Origin: a virus
Taxonomy: Duplodnaviria; Heunggongvirae; Uroviricota; Caudoviricetes
Virus record (IMG/VR): IMGVR_UViG_2563366903_000009
Coordinates: 1-40,486 of that record
Reading direction: 5' to 3' (one strand)
Length of the DNA stretch: 40,486 nucleotides
Position 1 is the first letter of the stretch, and each line of letters opens with the position of its first letter. Of this stretch, positions 1 through 31,299 are shown in pieces. The position numbers and the translations under genes were made by a program. The notes below the pieces were generated by a model that was given only the letters and a program-made list of their open reading frames with translations, made no database searches and had not been told where the DNA came from.

Positions 1-899
1 TCCCACTGCTCACGTGCTGCCCGAATTTCCTGAACTGCCCGTGATGCGGTGCCACCTGGTGCTGCTGCATGGTTTACCCCCTTGCTGACTGGTTTTACCT
101 GTGCCCTGACGTGCTGCACGTGGCGGGCAAATTTCTGCTCCCACTGAACCTGCGTGAAAACCTTCCCCTCCGCCATCCAGTAATCCCGGAATGCGGCAAG
201 CTCTGCAGGTGTAAATTCCGGCTCAGGCAGAGCCATACCCCACACTGCTGCCCGTTGTCGAAAATCCGACGACGGCTGCCAGACAGTAGTCATCGAAAAT
301 TTCCCGATCGGTTCGCTCAGGCCGTCCAGGTATTCAGGTTCGGCTGTCTGCAACGGCGCACCATGCGACTCACCGGTTGGAGCACTCTCGCGCATGCGCG
401 CGTTATGTGTGGGGTTTAATTCTGTATCTGTATCTTTATCTGTCGTGACTTGTCGTGACGGATGCGTGACACGTCGTGACTCATCGTGACAATCAGCATC
501 ATATTTCCGCAGCTTTTCGCGCTCCCGCTGCGCTCTCTTGCGCTCTGCCGGGGATTTTGCCGTTTGCGAAACGTTACCATTGTCCTCTTTCAGCACCTGA
601 CGTTTTTCCCATCCGGAAATAAGGTCACCATCCAGAACCCGCCCCTGCATTGCATGCAAAATTGAATCAATTACGTCTTCCGTCACATCAAGCGCACTTG
701 CTAAATCTTCCGTCGTGACATCAATGTGACCACGTAGTGACACGCCGTGACATGTCGTGACATTTCGTGACGCACTCACCAGAAGGTGGATATACACCGC
801 CATCACTGTTGCGATTGGCTGTCCTGAGACCCTGGCAATGGTTCGCCATTTGGGATCATTTGGCATGTCATGCCACAATCTGAGCCAGGCATTAGCCAT
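1..899 (-). CDS. Phage replication initiation protein, lambda O-like/YdaU-like (partial, runs off window start)
   Basis: Hand translation of minus strand from ATG at 899-897 (RBS GAGGTGAG upstream) gives MANAWLRLWHDMPNDPKWRTIARVSGQPIATVMAVYIHLLV... open for 299 codons to position 3. Absent from the ORF track, consistent with a run-off ORF. Two iteron clusters lie inside the coding sequence, as in lambda O. Confidence 0.55.
   Translation of the reverse strand, partial: MANAWLRLWHDMPNDPKWRTIARVSGQPIATVMAVYIHLLVSASRNVTTCHGVSLRGHIDVTTEDLASALDVTEDVIDSILHAMQGRVLDGDLISGWEKRQVLKEDNGNVSQTAKSPAERKRAQREREKLRKYDADCHDESRRVTHPSRQVTTDKDTDTELNPTHNARMRESAPTGESHGAPLQTAEPEYLDGLSEPIGKFSMTTVWQPSSDFRQRAAVWGMALPEPEFTPAELAAFRDYWMAEGKVFTQVQWEQKFARHVQHVRAQVKPVSKGVNHAAAPGGTASRAVQEIRAAREQW
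441..490. repeat. Iteron cluster A: five direct repeats with core CGTGAC at 10-11 bp spacing
   Basis: CGTGAC at 444-449, 454-459, 465-470, 475-480, 485-490; adjacent AT-rich stretch 421-440 (tctgtatctgtatctttatc). Confidence 0.6.
711..771. repeat. Iteron cluster B: six direct repeats with core GTGAC at 10-11 bp spacing
   Basis: GTGAC-containing units ending at 719, 730, 741, 751, 761, 771; same core as cluster A, about 220 bp away, inside the same ORF. Confidence 0.6.
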
Positions 900-967
900 A
901 CTCACCTCATCTGATACCGAACTTTACCCTCGAATATCCGGAAGAAATCCGGCATGAATATTGTTGG

Positions 968-1393
968 TCAATGCACGACAACAGCATTACCAGGCTGACC
1001 ACCACTGTTAGTCAGGGTGCCCCAGGCGATCGCCGCTGCGACAAAATCATCCACATCTTTCACCAGCCGATCCCTCCGTTCGACGATCTCACGGTAATAT
1101 TCAGAGCTGTGACTGCGCATACGGGCCACCAGCAGAGGCGGCATTGCCTTTTCGATCGCCGGTAACAGAGCCTGAATTTTTTCAACAGCATCAGGGGTGT
1201 CTTTATCCAGCCAACGGAAAATTTTCTGGGTATTACGAGCCAGGGCTTCCGGATGGCTGTCGTCGTACAGTTCCGGGAACGTCATTCCCAGCTCGAAATA
1301 CGCTTTGGTAATTTTCGCAGCCGGTACTTTTTCGCCGTCCGGATGCGCCCAGACATTCATCGCCATGCGGATGTGTTCATGCTTGATTTTCAT
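968..1393 (-). CDS. YdaT-like protein (gene in the cII position downstream of the Cro-like gene)
   Basis: 141-aa ORF MKIKHEHIRMAMNVWAHPDGEKVPAAKITKAYFELGMTFPELYDD...; overlaps the upstream YdaS-like gene by 17 nt, as in Rac-type ydaS-ydaT pairs. Family assignment from position and recall, not a search. Confidence 0.5.
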   Translation of the reverse strand: MKIKHEHIRMAMNVWAHPDGEKVPAAKITKAYFELGMTFPELYDDSHPEALARNTQKIFRWLDKDTPDAVEKIQALLPAIEKAMPPLLVARMRSHSSEYYREIVERRDRLVKDVDDFVAAAIAWGTLTNSGGQPGNAVVVH

Positions 1394-1658
1394 GAATCAA
1401 GCTCCTAGAAAGTGGTTGTGTTAACGTTTTGGTATCTTCCAGCTCGGGCCAAATATTCATCCAATCAAAAGGCCTTAGTTGCTGACGTGTAACTTCACCA
1501 TTACTGGCTCGCTCAATAAGGACACATAACGATGCCCCTAACACTTGACCTTTACTCAATGCTTTTCTTAGATAACCGATGCTGGTACCACACTCGCATG
1601 CAAACATACGCTGTTCATCTGACGAAAGAGAATTGAGAAATATTCTTAATTCTTCCAT
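1377..1658 (-). CDS. YdaS-family Cro-like HTH regulator
   Basis: 93-aa ORF with HTH-like segment CECGTSIGYLRKALSKGQ and C-terminal motif QQLRPFDWMNIWPEL typical of the YdaS family; divergent from the repressor gene. Confidence 0.65.
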   Translation of the reverse strand: MEELRIFLNSLSSDEQRMFACECGTSIGYLRKALSKGQVLGASLCVLIERASNGEVTRQQLRPFDWMNIWPELEDTKTLTQPLSRSLIHENQA

Positions 1659-3252: not shown

Positions 3253-3808
3253 CCTCCTGAGGGTTGGTAATTAAGGAGTTCTCCACGGGTCAGGTGGAGT
3301 GCGTGCGCCGGACACGGGTGAGCATCCGGCACTGACAGTTTACTGAAAGGATATGTCCCTGAAAAGTCAGGGCATAACGCGAAAGCGCACGGCGAAATTG
3401 GTCTCTCTGTACGGTGTCGTTAAATTTAGTTCGACCGTGCACTTCCGGTTGTGGCACTCCGCGAAATGGCGCGGCGGTAAGTATGGCTGGGGTTTCCTCC
3501 ATTGCTCCAGAAAATGCACCGGGTTGTCAGGTTGACCATACGCTTAAGTGACAGCCCCGCCACAATACCCATGCGTAGTCTTTGGTGGCATCAGTTCTAC
3601 TCCGTGACTGCTCTGCCACCCTTTTTAAAGTGAATTTTGTGATGCGGTGAATGCGGCTATGCGCACGCGGAACAGTTAAAACCGTAAAGTGGTCTTTTAC
3701 GGGGCGTAACGGGCATCCTTCTGTATTCCGGCGTTAATTGTTAACTGGTTAACGTCACCTGGAGGCACCAGGCACTGCATCACAAAATTCATTGTTGAGG
3801 ACGCGATA

Positions 3809-7055: not shown

Positions 7056-8351
7056 ATGAGAGAAGCTGAAATGAAATATCCGACAGGCGTGGAAAACCAT
7101 GGAGGGAAATTACGTATCTGGTTTGTTTATAAAGGTGTAAGAGTCCGGGAAAATCTTGGGGTTCCTGACACAGCAAAAAACAGACGCATTGCAGGTGAGC
7201 TACGCGCCTCTGTTTGTTACGCAATAAAAACTGGCGCTTTCGACTATGCAAAACAGTTTCCCGCCTCACACAATCTGGAAAAATTTGGTGAGGCCCGACA
7301 AGATTTAACCATAAAAGAACTGGCTGAAAAATTTCTGGCACTGAAAGAAACTGAAGTCGCAAAAACGTCACTCAACACGTACCGTGCCGTCATCAAAAAT
7401 ATTCTGAGCATAATCGGTGAAAAAAATCTTGCATCATCGATTAATAAAGAAAAATTGCTGGCGGTACGTAAAGAGTTACTGACTGGATACCAGATCCCCA
7501 AAAGTAACTATATTGTTACACAACCAGGGAGATCGGCTGTTACCGTAAATAATTACATGACAAATCTTTACGCCGTGTTCCAGTTTGGTGTTGATAACGG
7601 TTATCTGGCAGACAATCCATTTAAGGGGATCTCACCATTAAAGGAGTCGAGAACCATCCCGGATCCACTTTCGCGGGAGGAGTTTATCCGCCTTATTGAC
7701 GCGTGCAGAAATCAGCAAGCCAAAAATTTATGGTGTGTTTCCGTTTATACTGGGATTCGCCCTGGTGAACTCTGTGCGCTTGGATGGGAAGATATAGATC
7801 TGAAAAATGGAACAATGATAATCAGAAGAAATCTGGCAAAAGACCGTTTTACAGTACCAAAAACACAGGCGGGAACCAATCGTGTGATTCACCTTATTAA
7901 GCCCGCAATCGACGCTCTCCGGAGTCAGATGGCACTAACGAGACTGAGCAAAGAGCATATCATCGATGTTCACCTCAGAGAATTCGGCAGAACAGAGAAA
8001 CAAAAATGTACCTTTGTTTTTCAACCTGAAGTGTCAGCGAAAGTAAAAAATTATGGTGACCATTTTACCGTTGACTCAATAAGGCAGATGTGGGACGCAG
8101 CGGTAAAGCGTGCCGGAATCCGCCATCGCAAATCGTATCAGTCGAGACACACTTATGCCTGCTGGTCGTTAACAGCAGGAGCTAACCCGGCATTCATTGC
8201 AAACCAGATGGGCCATGCAGATGCGCAAATGGTGTTTCAGGTGTACGGGAAATGGATGTCAGAAAATAATAATGCGCAGGTAACGCTGTTAAATACACAG
8301 TTAAGCGAGTTTGCCCCAACCATGCCCCATAACGAAGCAATGAAAAATTAA
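7056..8351 (+). CDS. int: Tyrosine site-specific integrase
   Basis: 431-aa ORF with phage-integrase C-terminal catalytic region (...HTYACWSLTAGANPAFIANQMGHADAQMVFQVYGKW...); last gene before the host junction. Alternative start at 7071. Confidence 0.85.
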   Translation: MREAEMKYPTGVENHGGKLRIWFVYKGVRVRENLGVPDTAKNRRIAGELRASVCYAIKTGAFDYAKQFPASHNLEKFGEARQDLTIKELAEKFLALKETEVAKTSLNTYRAVIKNILSIIGEKNLASSINKEKLLAVRKELLTGYQIPKSNYIVTQPGRSAVTVNNYMTNLYAVFQFGVDNGYLADNPFKGISPLKESRTIPDPLSREEFIRLIDACRNQQAKNLWCVSVYTGIRPGELCALGWEDIDLKNGTMIIRRNLAKDRFTVPKTQAGTNRVIHLIKPAIDALRSQMALTRLSKEHIIDVHLREFGRTEKQKCTFVFQPEVSAKVKNYGDHFTVDSIRQMWDAAVKRAGIRHRKSYQSRHTYACWSLTAGANPAFIANQMGHADAQMVFQVYGKWMSENNNAQVTLLNTQLSEFAPTMPHNEAMKN

Positions 8352-18997: not shown

Positions 18998-19151
18998 ATG
19001 CCTGTTTACAGGTATCGCCATATCAATGGCGGGTCGAGAGAGCCTAATACAATACCCTTTCGGGAAATACGCTCCGCCGTCTGACGCGGTAGTTGAAGCC
19101 CGCCACCCCACTAAGGTGGCAGTCAATACTAAAACGTCAGGAGTCATAATT

Positions 19152-19787
19152 ATGACTAATCAACTCATCCCCGTATTCAACGGTTCTATCTCAAACCAAG
19201 CAGCCCTTCTATGCAATGCTCGCAATCTACACGCTTTCCTTGGGGTTGGTAAACGCTTTGCATCGTGGATAACAGAACGTATTGCTGAATATGGTTTCGT
19301 TGAAAATCAGGACTATATGATTGCTTCCCAAATTCGGGAAGCAAAAGGTAGAGGCGGTCACAACCGCAAGGAATACCACCTCACCCTCGACACAGCCAAA
19401 GAGCTTGCGATGGTTGAACGTAACGAAAAAGGTCGCCAGATCCGCCGCTACTTCATCGAGTGCGAAAAGAAACTTCGCAACATTCAGCCAGTACAAGCAG
19501 AACCACAGCCGCAATTCACAGCCGAGGAAATCATCCTCCTTTGCTACATGCAGCTCTGGATGGAAAAAGCCCAGGACCTCAGCAAACACCTGTATCCCAT
19601 CATGAAAGAGCTGAACTCCTCATACACGAACAAGCTGTATGACATTGCGTTTGAGACCATCTACATGGTGACGAAGAACAGAGATGCGTTACTGAGGGAG
19701 GTAACACGTCTCGACATGTCAAGTTCCGTTATCCAGCGGGCCATGCCAATGCTGAAAAGCCTGCGGGCAAGACAATTCGAGTTTTAA
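19152..19787 (+). CDS. Phage antirepressor, KilA-C-type N-terminal region with shared Ant C-terminal domain
   Basis: ATG at 19152 with AGGAG RBS; N-terminal ...GKRFASWITERIAEYGFVENQDY...EYHLTLDTAKELAMVERNEKGRQIRRYFIECEK; C-terminal ~90 aa near-identical to the second antirepressor. Confidence 0.7.
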   Translation: MTNQLIPVFNGSISNQAALLCNARNLHAFLGVGKRFASWITERIAEYGFVENQDYMIASQIREAKGRGGHNRKEYHLTLDTAKELAMVERNEKGRQIRRYFIECEKKLRNIQPVQAEPQPQFTAEEIILLCYMQLWMEKAQDLSKHLYPIMKELNSSYTNKLYDIAFETIYMVTKNRDALLREVTRLDMSSSVIQRAMPMLKSLRARQFEF

Positions 19788-19891: not shown

Positions 19892-20041
19892 ATGTCCATT
19901 TTTCAGATATGGTCGGGTAGCGCGTATACCGAAAAACAGCCGTAAGGCTAAGGATGCGGGCCGAACTTTCGACGGTGTTCAAGTACCCGACCGCCCTGCT
20001 GAACACGGGGTGATCTGAACGAATCGAAAGGACATAAAACT

Positions 20042-20674
20042 ATGAGCACTCAACTTGTATTCCACAATGTTCAATTCCAGACCGTTCAACGAGATGGTCT
20101 ACTGTGGTTGTCTGCCCCCCAAATAGCCAGCGCGTTACAATATGCAGATCAAAGCTCGGTAACACGCATCTATGCCCGTCACGCAGATGAATTCACAAAC
20201 GGTATGACAGCCTCGGTCAAATTGACCGATCCTAAAGGGGACAAGCAAGAGACTCGCATCTTCTCATTACGCGGCGCTCACCTAATAGCGATGTTTGCTC
20301 GAACTCCAATAGCAAAAGAGTTTCGTCGCTGGGTATTGGATATTCTGGACCGTGAAGCTGAAAAAAGCGCTATACCGCCACAACCTCATATTCAGCCTCA
20401 ATTCACAGCAGAAGACATCATCCTGCTCTGCTACGTTCAACTCTGGATGGAAAAAGCACAACAACTCAGTAAACAGCTATACCCCGTCATGAGAGAACTG
20501 AACTCTGATTACTATGGAAAGCTGTTTGATCTGGCCTACGAAACTCGTCATATAACCAACCGGACTCGCGACACATTGCTCCGCGAAGCAGCAAAACTTG
20601 ATCCCGCCAACTATACGGTGCACAGGGCCAGAAGTATGCTGGCGCAACTAAGAGCAAGACAATTTGAATTCTGA
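20042..20674 (+). CDS. Phage antirepressor, Bro-N-type N-terminal domain with shared Ant C-terminal domain
   Basis: MSTQLVFHNVQFQTVQRDGLLWLSAPQIASALQY... (Bro-N-like); C-terminal QPQFTAEDIILLCYVQLWMEKAQQLSK...LRARQFEF paralogous to antirepressor 1. Confidence 0.7.
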   Translation: MSTQLVFHNVQFQTVQRDGLLWLSAPQIASALQYADQSSVTRIYARHADEFTNGMTASVKLTDPKGDKQETRIFSLRGAHLIAMFARTPIAKEFRRWVLDILDREAEKSAIPPQPHIQPQFTAEDIILLCYVQLWMEKAQQLSKQLYPVMRELNSDYYGKLFDLAYETRHITNRTRDTLLREAAKLDPANYTVHRARSMLAQLRARQFEF

Positions 20675-22923: not shown

Positions 22924-25900
22924 TTAATCCACTCCCACTTTTTTGTTGTACTCGCGGTTAAACCGATCCACGGCAATTTTCATATCCCGCTCTACCGATT
23001 TCACCATCGCCGACTGTTGCGCCAGACTGAGAGTACTGTCGGCGTAAATGGCATCACGTTGTTTACGCAAATCCTTCAGTCTCTTCCGGGTATCCTGCAT
23101 AAGCCCGTTCATCGACAATTTTCCGTTGTTCTCGTCAATGAATGCCGTTCTTTCTGCACCGGTCAGACTCTTCAGCTCTGCGTGGTACTGCGCAACCTCC
23201 GTCATCCGGTCATACATCTTCTGCTGGTCAGCATACGGCATCACCTCACCCGAAATTTTCCCCAGGAAGGGCACCTGCTGCTCCGGTATATCAATACCGT
23301 TCAGCGATTTCACCGCCGCATCTGTGGTTTTGGAAATGAAGCGCCCTGTCCCTCCGGAGATATAGTCAATCCAGAATTTCAGCGATTCCGGTGTGATATC
23401 CACCGCGCCGGGACGATACTGGCTGCCACCTGAGAACGCATTCAGCCAGGATGCAAACGCCTTGTACGCCTCAGGCGTTGAACGTCTGCCCAGCTGGCTG
23501 TCCGGTTTCGGTGTGCCAAATGGCATGTTCTCCTGGTAAATCTGCGCCCCCATGAAGTTTTCATTCATGGCAAGGTTCGCAAACGGACGCAGAATGGTCG
23601 GCGCTGCATTTTTCAGCAATGCCCCGGACAGTGTTTCCGACGTTTCACTGCCCACAGGACTGAATGCCCCCAGGATACCACCGACAACATTACCGGCAGC
23701 ACGTGAAGCAGTCAGGTCGCCCGCTGCCACACCTTCAGCAGTATGCCCGAGCAGGAAGAAAACGTTGTACCCGTAAGGCAGAGGAATACTCCAGTACTCT
23801 CCGGCCTTGCCCCCGAACACCGATTTCATAATGACGAGGTTACGCTCTTTCACATGAGACGGCACCTTGTCATACCAGTTAACCCCGTCATCATCCTCCC
23901 CCGCAACACTGCGGTTAAGCGAGCCAAGCAGATAACCCGCTCCCACAGCTGCAAGCGCGATTTTCTGCGGTACATTGAGATTCTTCCAGCGAAGGCGCTC
24001 CGGTAACGGCCCGTCGCCATTAAGATGTCCGAGCGTTCTCACCAGGTTTGCGGTCCCCTGAATGCTGGCGTTGGCAAACATATACAGCGAGTTCATCAGC
24101 GCTCCCTGCTCACCACGACGGTTAAAGTTCACCGTCATGTTTTTGGCAAGAGACGCCGCCTGCTGGCGTGACAAACCAGCATCACGGGCGTGTTTATAGG
24201 CAGAAAGACGCAGAGCGTTTTCAACCGCCCCGTTGGCATCCTCGACAAGGTTAAGGAACGAATTCCATGCACCGATACTCTGGCCTTTCCATCCGCCCTT
24301 CGCCAGCGACACAAGGCGATCCATTTCCTTCTGCTGGCCCTCAAGGTCACCCATGTTAAACCAGCCGGTTTTACCTCCGTCCTCAACAAACTCTTTCCAC
24401 ACTTTCTGCCACTGTGCGCCTTTGCCCGTGAGGGTTTTGCCACGCAGACTGGCGTACACGGCTGACATTGCAGAACGGCTGTCTTTGACTACAGCCAGGG
24501 CGGATAAGTTATCCAGCCCTTTCAGTTTACCGTCGCTCCTTCCCTGCTCCGCCTTCAGGTTCATCACCGCCGTCTGCACGTCACGGATGAAGTTACTGAC
24601 CAGAAATTCCGGGTTATACGACGTGTTCACCGTTGCCAGGAAGCGGTTAACTTTCCCCAGCGTACGGATTACGGCGTTACTGGTTTCCGGCCCCATGTTC
24701 TTCATCGCACGCATCAGGCGCGGATCATGAAGTTTAATGTAGTAAGTTTTGCCGTCCTTTTTGGTGGTGAAGTAGCGATCCGCCATCATTGCCATCGGCA
24801 CAGGGCGCTCGACAACTTCGCGAATGGTTTCACCAGTTTCCTGGTCCTTGCGCTCTGCAATCACACGCATTGTATCCGGTCTGTCATCAGTGAATACCTG
24901 CCAGTAATCCTTGTCGGGATTATCCTGTACCAGTTTCAGGAAGGCGTTACCCACTTCATTTTTGCGATTGCGGATCAGCGATTCACTCAAATCCTGTATC
25001 GCCTGAGTGGAAGGAGACTGTGCGCGGGATGCACGCCCCATGGCCTGCTTACTTTCACGCCCGCCGATGGTGAATCCCTTGCCTGTACGTGGCTGTGACA
25101 CCACACCGTCAACATCCTGCCCTTTCAGGGGGACGTAGTAACGGTAGGCTTTCTGCCAGGCATCCACCACGCCGCTCTCTTCCAGTCCTGCCTCACGGAT
25201 AATCTCACGGCGACGGGCCAGCATATCGTCAATAATCCCTGCCAGACGGTCATACTGTGCCTGTTTGCCGCTGTTACGCACACGCTGCATGATTTCCGCC
25301 GCTTCCGCGTTGGTCATCCCCGAACCGCCGTCCGGCATTTTCGGGTTGATTTTCGCAATATGCGCGTTACGTTCCGGCGCGTGACGGGCGTAGAGGTACT
25401 CATCCAGATCGGCCTGCGCAATTTTGTAGTCCGCCAGCAATTTGGCCAGCGGCTGAACGTAGCGCTCCTTCATTACGTTCAGGTCGTTTTCCGCCTTCCC
25501 GTGGAAGAGTTCTTCTGCCATATAAGCGTTGTTACTGTCGTCCACTTTGCCGCCAGTTTTACGGATATTCTCCTGAACAGCTTTCAGCACCTGGAATTTA
25601 TCCTGCATCTGGCGCACAAAACGCGATGCAATAGTCTCTTCCGGTGTCAGACTGCTGGTACGGGAGTAATACGGCCCCTTGCGAATATCCTCAGGATGTA
25701 GTATTTTAAATCCAGAAGAGCCGTTGATGGTGTTCGCCTCGGGCAATTGGAGCCCGACTGCATGAAGCCATTCAGCGGCTTTTTCTTTATTAAGATACAG
25801 CAAAGATGTATCAAGCTGATCCTGCAAAGCACTCCTTTTGTCCTTTCCATAGGCACTGGCAATTTTGTTTATCTCTGCAAATCCATCGCCTTTCACATGG

Positions 25901-28900
25901 GTATGAATTGCAACAATGACAGGATTCCCTTTTGTATCGGTCGCCTGAATTAAAGATACCAACGCATCCGATTCAGTTTTCGAACGCATAACTGCTACCG
26001 GATCTGTCAGAAGTTGAGGCAAATCAGCCAGTGTTTCCACTGACACAAAGTGTTCTCTGATCTCTGGTCTCGTAGCCTTATGCACAACAGATGCAGGCAT
26101 AACCAGTTCAAGATCTGGTGCCCCCAATGCGCGCAAAACACGAGGCGTATCCCCAACTCTGAGCATTTCCCTTCTGGAAACCGATTGTAATCCGGCAATG
26201 CGACGCACTTCTGAAGCAAACTGCTTTGCATCATAGGCGTCAGCCTTAAACGGATCAGGTTTACCACTACGGGAGTACTGAGACGATGCGCCCGCGCCAT
26301 CCTCACGCGGCGTGTAACCTTCCCGCACACGCTGGCCTAACGTACGGATGGTCTCGCGAACAAGTCTGATATCGTTCAGTTCCGTCGGCTTCAGTAACCC
26401 CGTACGACGCAGTACCCCTTTGACCAGGGCAACAACACGCTCCCATGCCGCCACGAATTTATTCGGCTGTTTCTCCGCCATATGTGCCAGAAATTCACCC
26501 GCCTGCACTTCCGGTGATTCCTTACCATAGGACGCATCAACCTTACGCCAGGCTTCACGGATGGTGGCGTTATCACTGTCGCGGGTTTTCAGCACGGTTT
26601 TGATGATCGTCTGATATTCCGCTGGCGTGACAACATGCTCCATGGCATGGTGGATAATCTCGTGACGCAACTTCTCGCGTACGGTCCGCCCGTCAGGGAT
26701 GTTATCCGCCACCAGGACAATTTCACGTTTATCCGGACGATAGAACGCGTGCACCTTGCCGTAACCGTCGAATGATTCACCCGCCAGTGCTTCAGCCTCT
26801 TTCTGTGACTTCACCACGCGGACCTTCAGGTCACTGTCCTTAATGCCACTAATCACGCCACGGGCAACCGCTTCAACCTGCGGGACCGGGCTGCCTTTGG
26901 CTTCCGCACTGCGGTTAACATCCGAAATGAGATTGCCTTCAGGTGTGCGGGTCACGCCCTTACGGGAATAAAACGCAACGCCCTTGTCCGTCTCACGGGT
27001 TTTCAGGGTGCGGAACAGGTGATCGAATGCCTCACGAATGCCACCATCCAGTTCCGCATTCGTCGGATAAGCGTAGGTGTTATCTGTGTTGTGCTCAGGT
27101 GCCTTACGGATATTGACCAGATAATCATTCTCCACGCCAGCCGTACGCGCCTTATCCTGAACATAACGCTCAAAGGCACGTGCCGCCATTTCAACATCCG
27201 TTGACCAGTACGGTTTTGAGCGCACCTCATCGAGAAGAGCTGAACGACGCGGCATGTCACTGTTTTTAATGGCCTCAATGACACCTTTAAACGCGTCGTA
27301 AACCTCCTGACGCACCGGATATTCAGCGTCAACAAACCTGCCGTCTTTAAATACGCGCTTAACACGCCTGGCTTCCGTCATAAAGTCACCACCTGACGTA
27401 ATCTTCCCGTCAGTGGAAACATCATAACGACCAAAATAATTATCCAGTGAATGGAACCATTCGTGCGCCAGCGCACCCGGTCCGTTACCTTTTGTCAGGT
27501 TGATTGCCACCTCACCCGGCTCATAGTGTGCTGCCGCCTTACCCTTACCACGGGCACCAAATGCCAGGCCAAGACGACCGTTCAGGGAAAGCGCTTTTGT
27601 CGGTACATTCAGTACTTCAGCAAGGTCATGCAGCGAGTCATAAGCCCGGTTCAAATCAGCCTGACGACGCGGACCTTCCACGTAGTTACCAAACTGCACA
27701 CCACGAAAACCAAACGCATCGCTGAACTGCTTCGGTGAGACATCACCCTTGCGGCGTTCTGGCCCGGTACGATCGCGGTTGGTGGCGTTACGCTGCTCCT
27801 CACGGGAAATCTCACGCATCTCCTTCACATGACGAACAAGCTCATCACGATGTGAATCAATGTACTTACGCGCATCACTGGCTGACTTAAAGCCACCTCT
27901 CACCCGCATTTTGTTTTTGCCGTAAGCAATAAAAATATCGCCACTGCGGGTATTCCGGTATACGTCAAAGCTGATTTTGTCATCCGGTGACGGTGCTGTT
28001 TTTTCATCACCTTTCGCCTGTGATTTTTCCTCCTGCTCTGCAAACCAGGATTTTGCCTTTGTCAGTAATTCATCCCTGCTTTCCGAGAAAAAGAGATTGC
28101 TCCCCTTATTGTCCTTATTGCGCAGTGAATAAAGTTTCCGTGGCGGATCGTAACGTTTCCCTCCTGCCGCCTGATACACACCGGATACCACCCGATAAGC
28201 AGAAGCCTTGTCTATCTGCGAGGGTGGCAGCGTGCGTAACAGTTGCCATGTGTCCGCGTAACGGGCGGGCATTCTGCCTTCCATCCACTCAGCAAGCCGT
28301 CCGGCAGTCACTTTTCCTTCCAGCATTCCCGCCACACTTGTGCGGATGCTCTTTACACTCTCCACCCACTTCACTGCATTGAGTTTCGTCTTCGCCGGAA
28401 TATCGCTACGATACAGCGCTATCATTGCCAGGGTATCAGCATCGGCACCTTCGTTCGCCAGTTTTGCGTAGTCCGGTTTCGGGAACAGTTTGCTCAGCGG
28501 TTGCGTGACATAATCCCTGTCTTCCAGCGTTTTACCCAGTGTTTCGGCAAGCTGTGCATAACGGTGTTTTGCCGCGCCCTTAATCTCCTCGCCAAAGTCT
28601 TCAATTTTTGCACCACGCGCCTGCTGGTGAGTGCTCGGTTTATCTACCGGCACCGGCACCGGCACCTCAGTATCCGGAACATCGGTTATGGTCTGGCGAT
28701 TATCCCCGGTCTGTCTGCGCGCTTCTGCCTGCTGTGCCAGTTCCGGAAGGGAGTCACGAACCATACGAGGGAGTGATTCAGGATGTGGCATATCAACCCC
28801 ACGCTGTTCAGGTGCAGGAAGTCCTTCACGCACTGGTGCTGTGGCGTTCTGCTCATCCGGTGACGGCAGACCACGACGAACCGGTTCGCTCTCCAGTATT

Positions 28901-31299
28901 TCCCCCTGGCGACCAGCGGCATTTTCCGGTGCCTGCGCACGTCCTTTCTGGAAACTCTGGCCCTTCACCTCACCGGTTGTGGTAAAACGACCACCACGTC
29001 CGGCCTGATTTTCATCCGGCGTACGCGCCACTTCTCCTGGTAACGGATATCCCTGTCCGGGATGAATATCGCCGGGAGCGGGAAGGCGTGGACGCTCAGT
29101 TAACTCCTGTGCTGTCGGACCGGCATCACCTTCAGCCATCTGTGAACGTACAAGCTCCTCTGCCGTCGGCGCGTTGCCACGGGCAAGGCGGGCCTGCACT
29201 TCTGTATCATCCCCCGTGAAACCACGGAATCGCGGGTCACGCATGAACGCGGGCTGCTCCATCGGTTCAGCATCAGCAATACGCTCTCCGTCAGCCAGGG
29301 TGTTAATGGTCTCCGTTGCCACATCTTCAGAGAACGCAGGATTATCCATTTCAACGGCATACTGATTCTCGCCTTTCTTCACTACGGACGGTTTCAGGCC
29401 GGTGGCGCTGGCATTGCGGAAAACATCGCTCCCCAGAGCACTTTTTTCATCCGTGAAATAACGGTTGTCCGGACGCACCTTTTCAATGCGTTCTGCTGGT
29501 CTGGACGCACCACTCCCGTTAATTTCAATACGAACTTCATCCGGATCGCGGAACCGCACCGTCGGGTAAATACTCCCGTCGCCATCATCCGCATTTTCCG
29601 GCTGTGGCTGTGCCTCCGGTCTGGCCTCCTGCTGAGGGCGAAGCACATCACGGATAGCCCGTAACTGCTGCTCTTCAGTATCAGTACGCCCTTCCTTCAG
29701 GCTGAGTTTTCGGTATTCCTCAAGCAGTTCAGGGCGCGGCTTCGCCTTCAGCTCATCCATCACCGCCTGTCGCTTCGCCTGTTCATCCAGTTCATTTAAC
29801 AGCTGGCTGGCGGCTTCCCGGCGATGAACGGCAGACGTGTCTCCCTCAGGTGCCATATCCGCATCAGCATACTGTTCCAGAAGTTGCTCGCGATTCATGC
29901 CCTGCATGGATTCGCGATGCTGTGCCACCGGATCAGCCGGTTCGGGTTGCGGGGCTGCTTCACCCTGCTGTACGACTTCAGCCTCACGCATGGCGGTTTC
30001 TTCTGCGGCCTGACGTTTTCCACGATATCCGGCAACCGCACCGAACGGTGCGCCCATCGCTGCACCAAGAGCGGCTCCTTCGATCGTTGCGTCAGCTACC
30101 CCCTCCCATGGTGATACATCCATTCCGGCAGTCTCACGCAACGTCATATTTTCCTGGTAACGCGAATAGCCGCCCTGCGCCGCATTAATCGTCCCCTGTT
30201 CCGTGGCATTTCTGACAATGCCGCTTTTAACGGTCTTCGCCGTGCCCCGCATCGCCAGATTAAACAACTGAGCATCGCCCAGTTTTGCCGCCATGGCATT
30301 CACAGCCAGCAATTCAGGATCGGTTGCCAGCTGCGCGCGCACCTCATCGGCAACACGCTCTTTTGCCAGATCCATTTTCTGGCGATCAGTAAGCTGTGCG
30401 TGCTGCGGATCTGCATCAATTGACAAAAACGTCTGCTGAAATTTCGGGGACTTCGCCAGCTCAGAGTAATCCGCGTTAAGAACAGAGTCTGCTGCTGCCA
30501 TTGCACTCTGCCCCTGTGCGCTGGCTGAGGAATGGGTGATCAGGCCTGCCTGGAATAAATCCGGCATTTTTTTATCGACAGCTTCTGCTGCCAGTGCGGT
30601 AGCTCTTTCCGGCTGCATCCCTGCCGCAATGTATTTTTTCTCCAGCCCGGCGGTCAGCACTTTTCGCAGAGTGACTTCACCCAGCTTTTTAGTCACACCG
30701 CCTGCAACCAGATCAGGTACAAGCGCACCAATCAGGTTTACACCCTTCGTCAGCAAGACCGCAGAATCATCATAGCCTTCACTCATTGGCGTGTTCAGCG
30801 CACGAACAGCACCCGGCGACATCTGATCTGTCAGCCATTCATCCGAGGCTTTGGCACCATCACTGACTGCCTTGCCTGTGGCCTTCAGACCTTTACCGAC
30901 AGTATCAGTCACCGCGTTTTTCCCTGTTCCATCGGGAATGTTTTTAATCGCATCTCCAACAGAAGGTGGTGCGCCCAGTTCCTTTTGCGTGGAGGAAGGC
31001 GGCATGTAAACATCCGTCATGAAAGACGACAACCCGGCAAGCGTTTTTACAGGATTATTTACAAGTGCATCACCGAGTCCACGGGCCATTTCCCCTGTTC
31101 CCCGGACGGACTGGGCGAAACCTTTACCCATTGTTGGCAATACATCGCCCAGGCTGAACGACGTGCTGTGATCAACAGCGTTCTCCGGGTTGTTGAAAAA
31201 ATCCTGCCAGTAATTTTCTCCCGGCTGCTTAATGTTCAGACTGCTGCGGTTCTGGTTACCCAATTGCGCTTCAGGGCGCTGCTCATCTGAAAAAGCCAT
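22924..31299 (-). CDS. Giant 2,791-aa protein with two HExxH zincin-like motifs; candidate virion-packaged polyvalent protein
   Basis: Single uninterrupted ORF with RBS GGAG before the ATG; HEWFH at aa 1279-1283 (27451-27465) and HEIIH at aa 1546-1550 (26650-26664); acidic/Pro-rich low-complexity region at about aa 430-850; last gene of the minus-strand block. All plus-strand ORFs inside it are antisense artefacts. Confidence 0.8.
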   Translation of the reverse strand: MAFSDEQRPEAQLGNQNRSSLNIKQPGENYWQDFFNNPENAVDHSTSFSLGDVLPTMGKGFAQSVRGTGEMARGLGDALVNNPVKTLAGLSSFMTDVYMPPSSTQKELGAPPSVGDAIKNIPDGTGKNAVTDTVGKGLKATGKAVSDGAKASDEWLTDQMSPGAVRALNTPMSEGYDDSAVLLTKGVNLIGALVPDLVAGGVTKKLGEVTLRKVLTAGLEKKYIAAGMQPERATALAAEAVDKKMPDLFQAGLITHSSASAQGQSAMAAADSVLNADYSELAKSPKFQQTFLSIDADPQHAQLTDRQKMDLAKERVADEVRAQLATDPELLAVNAMAAKLGDAQLFNLAMRGTAKTVKSGIVRNATEQGTINAAQGGYSRYQENMTLRETAGMDVSPWEGVADATIEGAALGAAMGAPFGAVAGYRGKRQAAEETAMREAEVVQQGEAAPQPEPADPVAQHRESMQGMNREQLLEQYADADMAPEGDTSAVHRREAASQLLNELDEQAKRQAVMDELKAKPRPELLEEYRKLSLKEGRTDTEEQQLRAIRDVLRPQQEARPEAQPQPENADDGDGSIYPTVRFRDPDEVRIEINGSGASRPAERIEKVRPDNRYFTDEKSALGSDVFRNASATGLKPSVVKKGENQYAVEMDNPAFSEDVATETINTLADGERIADAEPMEQPAFMRDPRFRGFTGDDTEVQARLARGNAPTAEELVRSQMAEGDAGPTAQELTERPRLPAPGDIHPGQGYPLPGEVARTPDENQAGRGGRFTTTGEVKGQSFQKGRAQAPENAAGRQGEILESEPVRRGLPSPDEQNATAPVREGLPAPEQRGVDMPHPESLPRMVRDSLPELAQQAEARRQTGDNRQTITDVPDTEVPVPVPVDKPSTHQQARGAKIEDFGEEIKGAAKHRYAQLAETLGKTLEDRDYVTQPLSKLFPKPDYAKLANEGADADTLAMIALYRSDIPAKTKLNAVKWVESVKSIRTSVAGMLEGKVTAGRLAEWMEGRMPARYADTWQLLRTLPPSQIDKASAYRVVSGVYQAAGGKRYDPPRKLYSLRNKDNKGSNLFFSESRDELLTKAKSWFAEQEEKSQAKGDEKTAPSPDDKISFDVYRNTRSGDIFIAYGKNKMRVRGGFKSASDARKYIDSHRDELVRHVKEMREISREEQRNATNRDRTGPERRKGDVSPKQFSDAFGFRGVQFGNYVEGPRRQADLNRAYDSLHDLAEVLNVPTKALSLNGRLGLAFGARGKGKAAAHYEPGEVAINLTKGNGPGALAHEWFHSLDNYFGRYDVSTDGKITSGGDFMTEARRVKRVFKDGRFVDAEYPVRQEVYDAFKGVIEAIKNSDMPRRSALLDEVRSKPYWSTDVEMAARAFERYVQDKARTAGVENDYLVNIRKAPEHNTDNTYAYPTNAELDGGIREAFDHLFRTLKTRETDKGVAFYSRKGVTRTPEGNLISDVNRSAEAKGSPVPQVEAVARGVISGIKDSDLKVRVVKSQKEAEALAGESFDGYGKVHAFYRPDKREIVLVADNIPDGRTVREKLRHEIIHHAMEHVVTPAEYQTIIKTVLKTRDSDNATIREAWRKVDASYGKESPEVQAGEFLAHMAEKQPNKFVAAWERVVALVKGVLRRTGLLKPTELNDIRLVRETIRTLGQRVREGYTPREDGAGASSQYSRSGKPDPFKADAYDAKQFASEVRRIAGLQSVSRREMLRVGDTPRVLRALGAPDLELVMPASVVHKATRPEIREHFVSVETLADLPQLLTDPVAVMRSKTESDALVSLIQATDTKGNPVIVAIHTHVKGDGFAEINKIASAYGKDKRSALQDQLDTSLLYLNKEKAAEWLHAVGLQLPEANTINGSSGFKILHPEDIRKGPYYSRTSSLTPEETIASRFVRQMQDKFQVLKAVQENIRKTGGKVDDSNNAYMAEELFHGKAENDLNVMKERYVQPLAKLLADYKIAQADLDEYLYARHAPERNAHIAKINPKMPDGGSGMTNAEAAEIMQRVRNSGKQAQYDRLAGIIDDMLARRREIIREAGLEESGVVDAWQKAYRYYVPLKGQDVDGVVSQPRTGKGFTIGGRESKQAMGRASRAQSPSTQAIQDLSESLIRNRKNEVGNAFLKLVQDNPDKDYWQVFTDDRPDTMRVIAERKDQETGETIREVVERPVPMAMMADRYFTTKKDGKTYYIKLHDPRLMRAMKNMGPETSNAVIRTLGKVNRFLATVNTSYNPEFLVSNFIRDVQTAVMNLKAEQGRSDGKLKGLDNLSALAVVKDSRSAMSAVYASLRGKTLTGKGAQWQKVWKEFVEDGGKTGWFNMGDLEGQQKEMDRLVSLAKGGWKGQSIGAWNSFLNLVEDANGAVENALRLSAYKHARDAGLSRQQAASLAKNMTVNFNRRGEQGALMNSLYMFANASIQGTANLVRTLGHLNGDGPLPERLRWKNLNVPQKIALAAVGAGYLLGSLNRSVAGEDDDGVNWYDKVPSHVKERNLVIMKSVFGGKAGEYWSIPLPYGYNVFFLLGHTAEGVAAGDLTASRAAGNVVGGILGAFSPVGSETSETLSGALLKNAAPTILRPFANLAMNENFMGAQIYQENMPFGTPKPDSQLGRRSTPEAYKAFASWLNAFSGGSQYRPGAVDITPESLKFWIDYISGGTGRFISKTTDAAVKSLNGIDIPEQQVPFLGKISGEVMPYADQQKMYDRMTEVAQYHAELKSLTGAERTAFIDENNGKLSMNGLMQDTRKRLKDLRKQRDAIYADSTLSLAQQSAMVKSVERDMKIAVDRFNREYNKKVGVD

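Follow-up and report, generated by a model that had tools for sequence, protein, structure and literature searches.

The stretch of DNA analysed in this study, referred to here as the window, is the full 40,486 nucleotides of IMG/VR record IMGVR_UViG_2563366903_000009, and its left end carries a replication initiator gene on the minus strand (1-899, with the ATG at 899-897) that runs off the window edge, so that 299 of about 345 codons are present. Inside this gene, a block of five short direct repeats (block B, the proximal block) and the A+T-rich tract that adjoins it are probably the origin of replication proper, placed within the gene of the prophage's own initiator; we put the probability of this reading at about 0.75. 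A second block of six repeats with the same core, nearer the start of the gene (block A, the distal block), is proposed from its sequence to be an accessory initiator-binding array. Taken as a whole, the arrangement is likely to be a previously uncharacterised and widespread variant of the intragenic iteron origin. We infer protein binding, unwinding, helicase loading and origin activity from comparisons of sequences and predicted structures.

Two repeat blocks and an A+T-rich tract in one reading frame

The initial annotation had called five and six copies of a GTGAC core at helical-turn spacing in two blocks, and both blocks were recovered, at 445-490 and 715-771. On the plus strand the GTGAC cores of the proximal block start at 445, 455, 466, 476 and 486 (steps of 10, 11, 10 and 10 bp) and those of the distal block at 715, 726, 737, 747, 757 and 767 (steps of 11, 11, 10, 10 and 10 bp). 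Read on the coding strand, that is, on the minus strand of the window, block B (443-490) comprises five direct copies of (T)GTCACG and block A (713-771) six direct copies with the same core. The conserved unit is (T)GTCACG with a period of 10-11 bp and without dyad symmetry. Block A begins 130 nucleotides into the initiator gene, and a gap of 229 bp separates it from block B. A twelfth copy of the core stands alone and inverted at 682-686, 29 bp from the nearest copy in block A; here GTCAC is on the plus strand and GTGAC on the coding strand, where it makes up codons Val72-Thr73. Tandem Repeats Finder independently reported period-10 arrays at 442-490 and 737-771, together with an array of 3.8 copies of TCTGTA at 421-443.

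The core is rare elsewhere. Nine of the 17 plus-strand CGTGAC sites in the 40.5 kb window fall inside the two blocks, and the background rate predicts only 0.07 GTGAC per 61 bp. Chains of at least two GTGAC or GTCAC cores at 9-12 bp spacing were found nowhere outside the blocks on either strand of the 40.5 kb window, and the whole 40 kb genome of the related phage Evi likewise contains no core chain other than its own two blocks. This rarity, set against the background rate, indicates that the arrays are real and far from chance. A promoter and terminator scan gave no match above shuffle expectation, and its sole promoter-like match (466-493) consists of the repeats themselves.

The A+T-rich tract (415-443, minus strand) is 29 bp long and 76% A+T, reads ACAGATAAAGATACAGATACAGAATTAAA on the coding strand, a (GATAAA/GATACA)n sequence, and abuts the last iteron of block B. 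The G+C minimum of the first 1.4 kb (35%) falls at 401-440. Such a (GATAAA/GATACA)n run of 20-40 bp directly follows the last proximal iteron in all 24 of the 24 loci of the GTCACG clade. It was previously suggested that an A+T stretch accompanies the repeats; this holds for the block at 443-490 and does not extend to the block at 713-771, which is proposed to be accessory and which some distant relatives lack.

From its sequence, the tract at 415-443 is proposed to be a DNA-unwinding element, and it is also proposed to be a mosaic joint between the N- and C-terminal modules of the initiator gene. Window positions 421-1405 share about 84% identity with phages Evi and Tritos, and positions 1-441 share about 87% nucleotide identity with the ydaU gene of Rac-SA53, the N-terminal domain of which is different. 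The homology breakpoint is thus at 421-441, within the tract, and the common (GATAAA/GATACA)n linker may serve as a recombination point for swaps of initiator modules. Just past the tract, on the side of the C-terminal module, lies a G+C-rich palindrome, CGCGCATGCGCGCG, at 389-402, and an imperfect copy of it, CGCGCACGCGCGCG, occupies the same place in Rac-SA53 ydaU. This palindrome recalls the inverted repeat that adjoins the A+T region of lambda, though its membership of the origin is uncertain.

Conservation and co-variation of the repeats

Repeats within a reading frame could be a by-product of protein evolution, in which slippage makes a low-complexity linker and hairpin with no function as DNA. 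The copy number of the blocks varies, as slippage would predict, and both blocks encode structurally tolerant segments. In the AlphaFold model, the segment encoded by block A (amino acids 43-63) is a beta-hairpin between helix 1 and helix 2 of a winged-helix domain; AlphaFold 2 confidence is lowered at amino acids 41-60, and the predicted local distance difference test score (pLDDT) is below 50 at amino acids 48-53. Block B encodes amino acids 137-153 of a disordered linker, and block B and the A+T tract together encode amino acids 137-162, between the folded N-terminal domain (1-104) and a DnaT-like domain (201-267). Because the linker is disordered and the hairpin is of low confidence, the repeats sit where the protein best tolerates a sequence dictated by the DNA.

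However, the cores do not behave as a peptide repeat. The 11 GTCAC cores on the coding strand are spread over reading frames 0, 1 and 2 (4, 3 and 4 copies), so that one block yields the tripeptides ASR, VTT, CHG, VSL, GHI and VTT and the other CHD, ESR, VTH, PSR and VTT. In a set of 28 distinct close alleles, taken from phage contigs and genomes, none of the 18 third-codon positions within cores is variable, compared to 69 of 138 outside them (Fisher p = 1.5e-5). When all positions within the blocks are counted, 1 of 55 core positions varies, compared to 20 of 62 spacer positions. Changes in copy number keep both the register of the repeats and the reading frame. Relative to most relatives, the window allele has two extra repeats in block A (21 bp, 7 amino acids, with pLDDT below 50 in the insert), and another relative has three (30 bp, 10 amino acids). 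The genes of phage Evi, Pseudomonas phages and an Aeromonas phage carry 4 + 5, 4 + 4 and 4 + 3 copies, respectively.

The inverted copy at 682-686 is also kept at the DNA level. In the GTCAC clade, its Val codon is GTG in 21/21 loci that have Val-Thr at this position, whereas the rest of the domain uses GTT (84), GTG (50), GTC (34) and GTA (20) for Val. In a locus with blocks built on GTAACG (L112), the same Val codon is GTT, which creates GTTAC, the reverse complement of GTAAC. Another locus (L101) retains GTGAC at the inverted site in a different frame after its amino acids had changed. The use of three frames and the invariant silent sites rule out a peptide repeat as the explanation, and the repeats appear to be DNA elements under purifying selection at the DNA level. 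The view of the repeats as a by-product of protein evolution is already strongly disfavoured, to the point of being barely credible, as silent core positions are invariant next to variable silent neighbours, L101 holds its site despite changed amino acids, and, as described below, other clades have a new core that is common to the two blocks.

Conservation was also examined over a much wider range. An alignment of the family was scanned against one genome per species, which gave 75 diverse loci ranging from Enterobacteria to Burkholderiales, Sphingomonadales and Acidobacteria. The first 650 nucleotides of each gene were then searched de novo for arrays of any 5-mer, with a minimum of 3 copies spaced by 9-12 bp. 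One or more such arrays were found in 60/67 initiator genes, compared to 16/402 flanking controls and 27/1340 codon shuffles. A pair of arrays built on one 5-mer and separated by more than 100 bp was found in 40/67 initiator genes and in none of the controls (0/402 flanking, 0/1340 codon shuffles). Block B is present at the same place in 60/67 of the diverse relatives, and in 40/67 the core of block A is identical to that of block B. Absence of the repeats from otherwise conserved homologues had been named as the observation to look for against an origin, and the repeats are instead present in 60 of the 67. Some distant members keep the proximal block and tract and are missing the distal block. 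The positions of the repeats are conserved across Proteobacteria. An earlier measure of co-variation, the top 5-mer in block B, was dropped because the AGATA repeat of the linker dominated the counts, and the periodic-chain search with flank and codon-shuffle controls replaced it.

The sequence of the core differs between clades. GTCACG is found in Enterobacteria, Pseudomonas, Bordetella and Chromobacterium, GTAACG in one Pantoea locus and one Enterobacter locus, GCAACG in Ralstonia phage Firinga and one Burkholderia locus, (C)GAACG(C) in many beta- and alpha-proteobacteria, and TGACGC in one locus. Within the GTCACG clade the consensus of both blocks is (T)GTCACG, with a spacing of 10 bp in 106 cases and 11 bp in 34. 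The two blocks agree within a genome and switch core together between clades, which is the pattern expected if the sites are read by one protein of drifting specificity. Two loci from Serratia and Pantoea (L138 and L152) have a linker with CTACGTA-type repeat units and no GATAAA tract; these linker repeats may be a further variant of the origin.

The module is common. It was found in 702 of 5,426 complete Escherichia coli genomes. A single genome can hold as many as four copies, and several O157:H7 strains have three. Beyond E. coli, phages and prophages that carry it were found in Pseudomonas, Aeromonas, Bordetella, Ralstonia, Burkholderia and others. Among the matches listed, the annotation under the module is coding sequence only.

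The initiator and the reader of the sites

The initial annotation described the gene as O-like, which is borne out for the role of the protein and not for its family. PHROGs labels the protein a replication initiation protein, and relatives in NCBI are named 'phage replisome organizer' or 'DnaT-like ssDNA-binding domain-containing protein'. AlphaFold models show a confident helical winged-helix domain at amino acids 1-104, a disordered linker at about amino acids 105-192 (pLDDT below 50 at 135-192) and then the DnaT domain, a DnaT-like single-stranded DNA-binding domain at amino acids 201-267. The C-terminal part matches Pfam PF17948 (DnaT single-stranded DNA-binding domain, E = 3.6e-17), and Foldseek aligned it with the DnaT crystal structures 4ou6 and 6aeq at 52-58% identity and a target TM-score of 0.85-0.94. 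The NCBIfam DnaT equivalog model scored 96 bits over amino acids 194-278 only, compared to a cut-off of 201, and equivalence to full-length DnaT is therefore not indicated. With the whole protein, Pfam gave nothing besides DnaT at E <= 0.01, neither the lambda O family nor RepA_N, and with the N-terminal 160 amino acids it gave no match at E <= 1. The N-terminal replisome-organiser domain is represented by TIGR01714 and PF09681. TIGR01714 aligned end to end with the N-terminal part (amino acids 5-131 against positions 1-118 of 119 in the model) with E = 0.0025 and 18 bits, under its cut-off of 49.8. A profile comparison with SPP1 G38P using hhalign returned a probability of 0.1, that is, no detectable homology. 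On the structural models, the N-terminal domain is predicted to be a winged helix of the DnaD/RepA_N/replisome-organiser-like type. The C-terminal domain appears to be swappable and is DnaT-like in the window.

Comparisons between phages bear on which protein reads the sites. Phage Evi has the N-terminal domain and the repeats in common with the window and a different C-terminal domain. Rac-SA53 YdaU shares the A+T linker and the DnaT C-terminal domain with the window, but the N-terminal domain of this Rac initiator is DUF1376 and differs from that of the window initiator. In its gene the GTCACG repeats are replaced by two palindromic GTGTTYRAACA sites, 23 bp apart, that adjoin the A+T linker (locus L002, 2971-3005). 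The partner gene downstream varies as well, being lambda-P-like in E. coli, DnaC/IstB-like in Aeromonas, DnaB in Ralstonia and a Toprim-DnaB fusion in Pseudomonas.

It is conceivable that the sites are bound by a protein other than the initiator, such as a host factor or a YdaT/cII-like or Cro-like regulator. The module common to the window and Evi (421-1405) includes a ydaT-like gene, and the comparison of these two alone cannot separate the initiator from YdaT because the common module spans both. Pseudomonas and Ralstonia phages, however, carry the repeats and have no YdaT-like gene upstream. The switching of the core between clades in related hosts argues against a conserved host factor, and the operator-like repeats of the immunity region differ in sequence (AATACCCRCAGGT). 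Binding by another protein is thus very unlikely. Since the partners vary and YdaT is sometimes absent, the N-terminal domain of the initiator is the only constant companion of the repeats.

The GTGTTYRAACA sites of Rac-SA53 ydaU are, as a separate observation, candidate binding sites of Rac oriJ, an origin that is known genetically (cited in PMC11014345 and PMC3945230). Phage phi80 gene 15 was considered as a relative and rejected, as phi80 did not turn up among the phages carrying the N- or C-terminal domain.

Within the folded domain (amino acids 1-104), all positions that cleanly separate the GTCACG and GAACGC clades are in amino acids 45-62 and 72-73, the parts of the protein for which the distal block or the inverted site codes; no such positions were found in amino acids 1-42, 64-70 or 74-104. 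A basic segment at amino acids 107-127 also differs between these two clades. One possibility, which we consider doubtful, is that the binding-site DNA itself encodes the segments that set specificity, namely the beta-hairpin (amino acids 43-63) and the turn before the recognition helix (amino acids 72-73). The same nucleotides would in that case specify both the site and its reader, and neither could change without the other. Equally allowed is the alternative that the hairpin and residues 72-73 passively follow the DNA, in which case specificity may reside in the basic segment.

Proposed mechanism, prophage setting and significance

The model proposed here is that the winged-helix N-terminal domain would bind the (T)GTCACG sites, all of which would lie on the same face of the DNA because they are spaced by one helical turn. 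Once the five proximal sites (443-490) are occupied, the resulting nucleoprotein array would distort the DNA and open the A+T tract next to it, at 415-443. The DnaT-like C-terminal module and the downstream lambda-P-like protein would then bring host DnaB to the opened DNA. The distal array (713-771) and the inverted site (682-686) would be a second set of sites for the same initiator, most likely raising its local concentration or pairing with the proximal array. Such an enhancer or pairing role is somewhat more likely for the distal array than a transcription roadblock or negative control, though the data do not decide between them.

The layout has precedents. In lambda, the origin, made up of iterons and an A+T tract, occupies the middle of gene O, and in Shiga toxin (Stx) phages two extra iterons add 13 amino acids to O and are needed for replication although they are weakly bound (PMC7466680). 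As in these phages, the candidate origin of the window lies mid-gene between the parts encoding the DNA-binding N-terminal domain and the partner-binding C-terminal domain, direct repeats are followed by an A+T-rich tract (415-443), the gene stands in a rightward operon after cro and cII with a P-type loader gene next (seen in the close relative L166, described below), and extra iterons are accommodated in frame (two add 13 amino acids in Stx phages and 7 in the window). The lambda-type layout proposed in the initial annotation is supported by the conservation of the repeats as DNA, by in-frame changes in copy number and by co-variation of the core with the N-terminal domain across clades. The window differs from lambda in that its initiator has no detected sequence relationship to lambda O, its C-terminal domain is DnaT-like, and its sites form two blocks with 229 bp between them and a single inverted copy. 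The iterons of lambda are 19 bp, whereas the sites in the window are about 7 bp at 10-11 bp spacing and are not 19-bp dyad-symmetric iterons.

The short repeats have a parallel in Bacillus phage SPP1. Its oriL lies inside gene 38, with direct repeats bound by the replisome organiser G38P beside an A+T unwinding element, and theta replication reconstituted in vitro needs no other origin DNA than oriL (PMC5737612). A further G38P-binding region, oriR, is located at a distance of about 13 kb (PMC6316719). The gene 38 sequence has GAAAcGACAC-type units with an 11-bp period followed by an A+T-rich run. The short 10-bp unit had been regarded as a departure from lambda iterons; the unit is indeed short, but it is not unprecedented, given the repeats of about 11 bp in SPP1 oriL. 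Like SPP1, the window has short direct repeats and an A+T-rich element in the linker-coding part of an initiator gene, and two separate repeat regions are proposed for its initiator. Unlike oriR, which is about 13 kb off with its own A+T tract, the second block of the window is 229 bp off in the same gene and has no tract, and no distant array comparable to oriR is present in the window or in the complete Evi genome.

In plasmid pSK41, four Rep boxes near the middle of rep are the targets of the N-terminal domain of the RepA_N initiator. The origin-encoded part of Rep is a linker, which tolerates in-frame deletion when Rep is provided in trans, and the C-terminal domain is exchangeable (PMC5703833). 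The window initiator differs in having no RepA_N Pfam match, in being carried by phages and prophages of Proteobacteria rather than Gram-positive plasmids, and in having an extra block of sites inside the part of the gene that encodes the DNA-binding domain. In P1 (incC/incA), F (incB/incC) and P4 (ori/crr), a single initiator likewise has two clusters of sites, of which one is at the origin and the other has an accessory or controlling role. Those clusters flank or lie outside the initiator gene, whereas both blocks of the window are inside one reading frame. Three features are new compared to lambda, SPP1 and pSK41: the sites recur in a further block 229 bp away within one reading frame, this further block overlaps a structural element of the DNA-binding domain, and the core switches by clade in both blocks.

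Several points weigh against an origin at this place. The literature search found no experiment on this initiator family and no description of its origin, and sequence alone does not separate an origin from purely regulatory initiator-binding sites. The A+T tract is short (29 bp) and of moderate A+T richness. No DnaA box was found within about 150 bp of either block, and the count of such boxes across the window is at chance level. The helical phase between the blocks clusters weakly (7 distinct distances that are not independent, Rayleigh p about 0.03-0.05), and because it is so weakly conserved a rigid loop is not favoured.

A rival reading is that the repeats are initiator-binding sites for control and that replication starts elsewhere, with the sites serving autoregulation (as a roadblock to transcription of the initiator/P operon), handcuffing or titration to limit re-initiation, or incompatibility between co-resident prophages. 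Plasmids P1 and F carry separate control iterons, block A is only 130 nucleotides into the gene and has no adjoining A+T tract, and titration would have consequences because up to 4 copies of the module are present per E. coli genome. The distal iterons of Stx phages, too, are weakly bound (PMC7466680). However, the (GATAAA)n tract invariably comes straight after block B with a fixed junction, distant relatives without block A keep block B and the tract, and the layout matches three experimentally proven origins. A purely regulatory function of the repeats is therefore considered unlikely overall; it is a plausible account of block A alone and a weak one of block B, which together with the A+T tract is still preferred as the origin proper.

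The region around the initiator gene is the replication module of a Qin/Rac-type lambdoid prophage of E. coli, as judged from protein identity, the operon, the P-like partner, and the DicF, RecE-like and integrase context. Upstream of the initiator in the same rightward-type operon are a YdaT/cII-like gene (968-1393, minus strand) and a YdaS/Cro-like gene (1377-1658, minus strand), both of which are context and not part of the origin, and a divergent repressor-like gene lies beyond them. Transcription of the YdaS/YdaT-like/initiator operon would traverse the proposed origin. In an E. coli locus that is 99.1% identical (L166), the initiator has 345 amino acids and the next gene overlaps it and matches Pfam Phage_lambda_P (E = 3e-15), at a position that corresponds to DNA outside the window; the order of the operon is cro-like, cII-like, initiator, P-like. 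Further to the right the window carries DicF RNA, a RecE-like exonuclease gene, an integrase gene and then chromosomal genes. The DicF antisense RNA is at 3570-3621 (Rfam, 58.9 bits) and dicB is present in the corresponding stretch of L166, and on these grounds the prophage is assigned to the Qin/dic family. The tyrosine integrase gene (7056-8351) is followed, up to 18622, by an enolase-superfamily gene and two molybdopterin oxidoreductase genes, so that the prophage would end near 8.4 kb and the rest of the window would be chromosome or other elements.

Some further features of the window were noted. Operator-like repeats, AATACCCGCAGGT and AATACCCACAGGT, are at 1686-1698 and 1710-1722, in the divergent promoter region that separates the cro-like and repressor-like genes. 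Just past the repressor-like gene is a perfect 14-bp inverted repeat, TACCCATAGGTATT / AATACCTATGGGTA (2221-2257), that also scores as a terminator. Beyond the prophage end marked by the integrase, Rfam matches to sRNA-Xcc1 occur at 19028-19112 and 19911-20000 (53 and 67.7 bits, respectively). The former falls at the 5' end of an open reading frame for an AntA-type antirepressor (19026-19787) and the latter just upstream of a BRO-N-type open reading frame (20042-20674). A single open reading frame of 2,791 codons occupies 22924-31299 on the minus strand.

The findings reported here overturn nothing, since the design principle is already known from lambda, SPP1 and RepA_N plasmids. They provide a clear example from nature in which a DNA-binding protein and sites located within its own reading frame co-evolve, and the clade-specific cores are candidate orthogonal initiator/origin pairs. 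If block B and its tract are indeed the origin, then the origin and its specificity classes would predict which co-resident prophages cross-activate or compete with one another. With up to four of the same modules in one E. coli genome, the initiator of one prophage could act on the origins of others.

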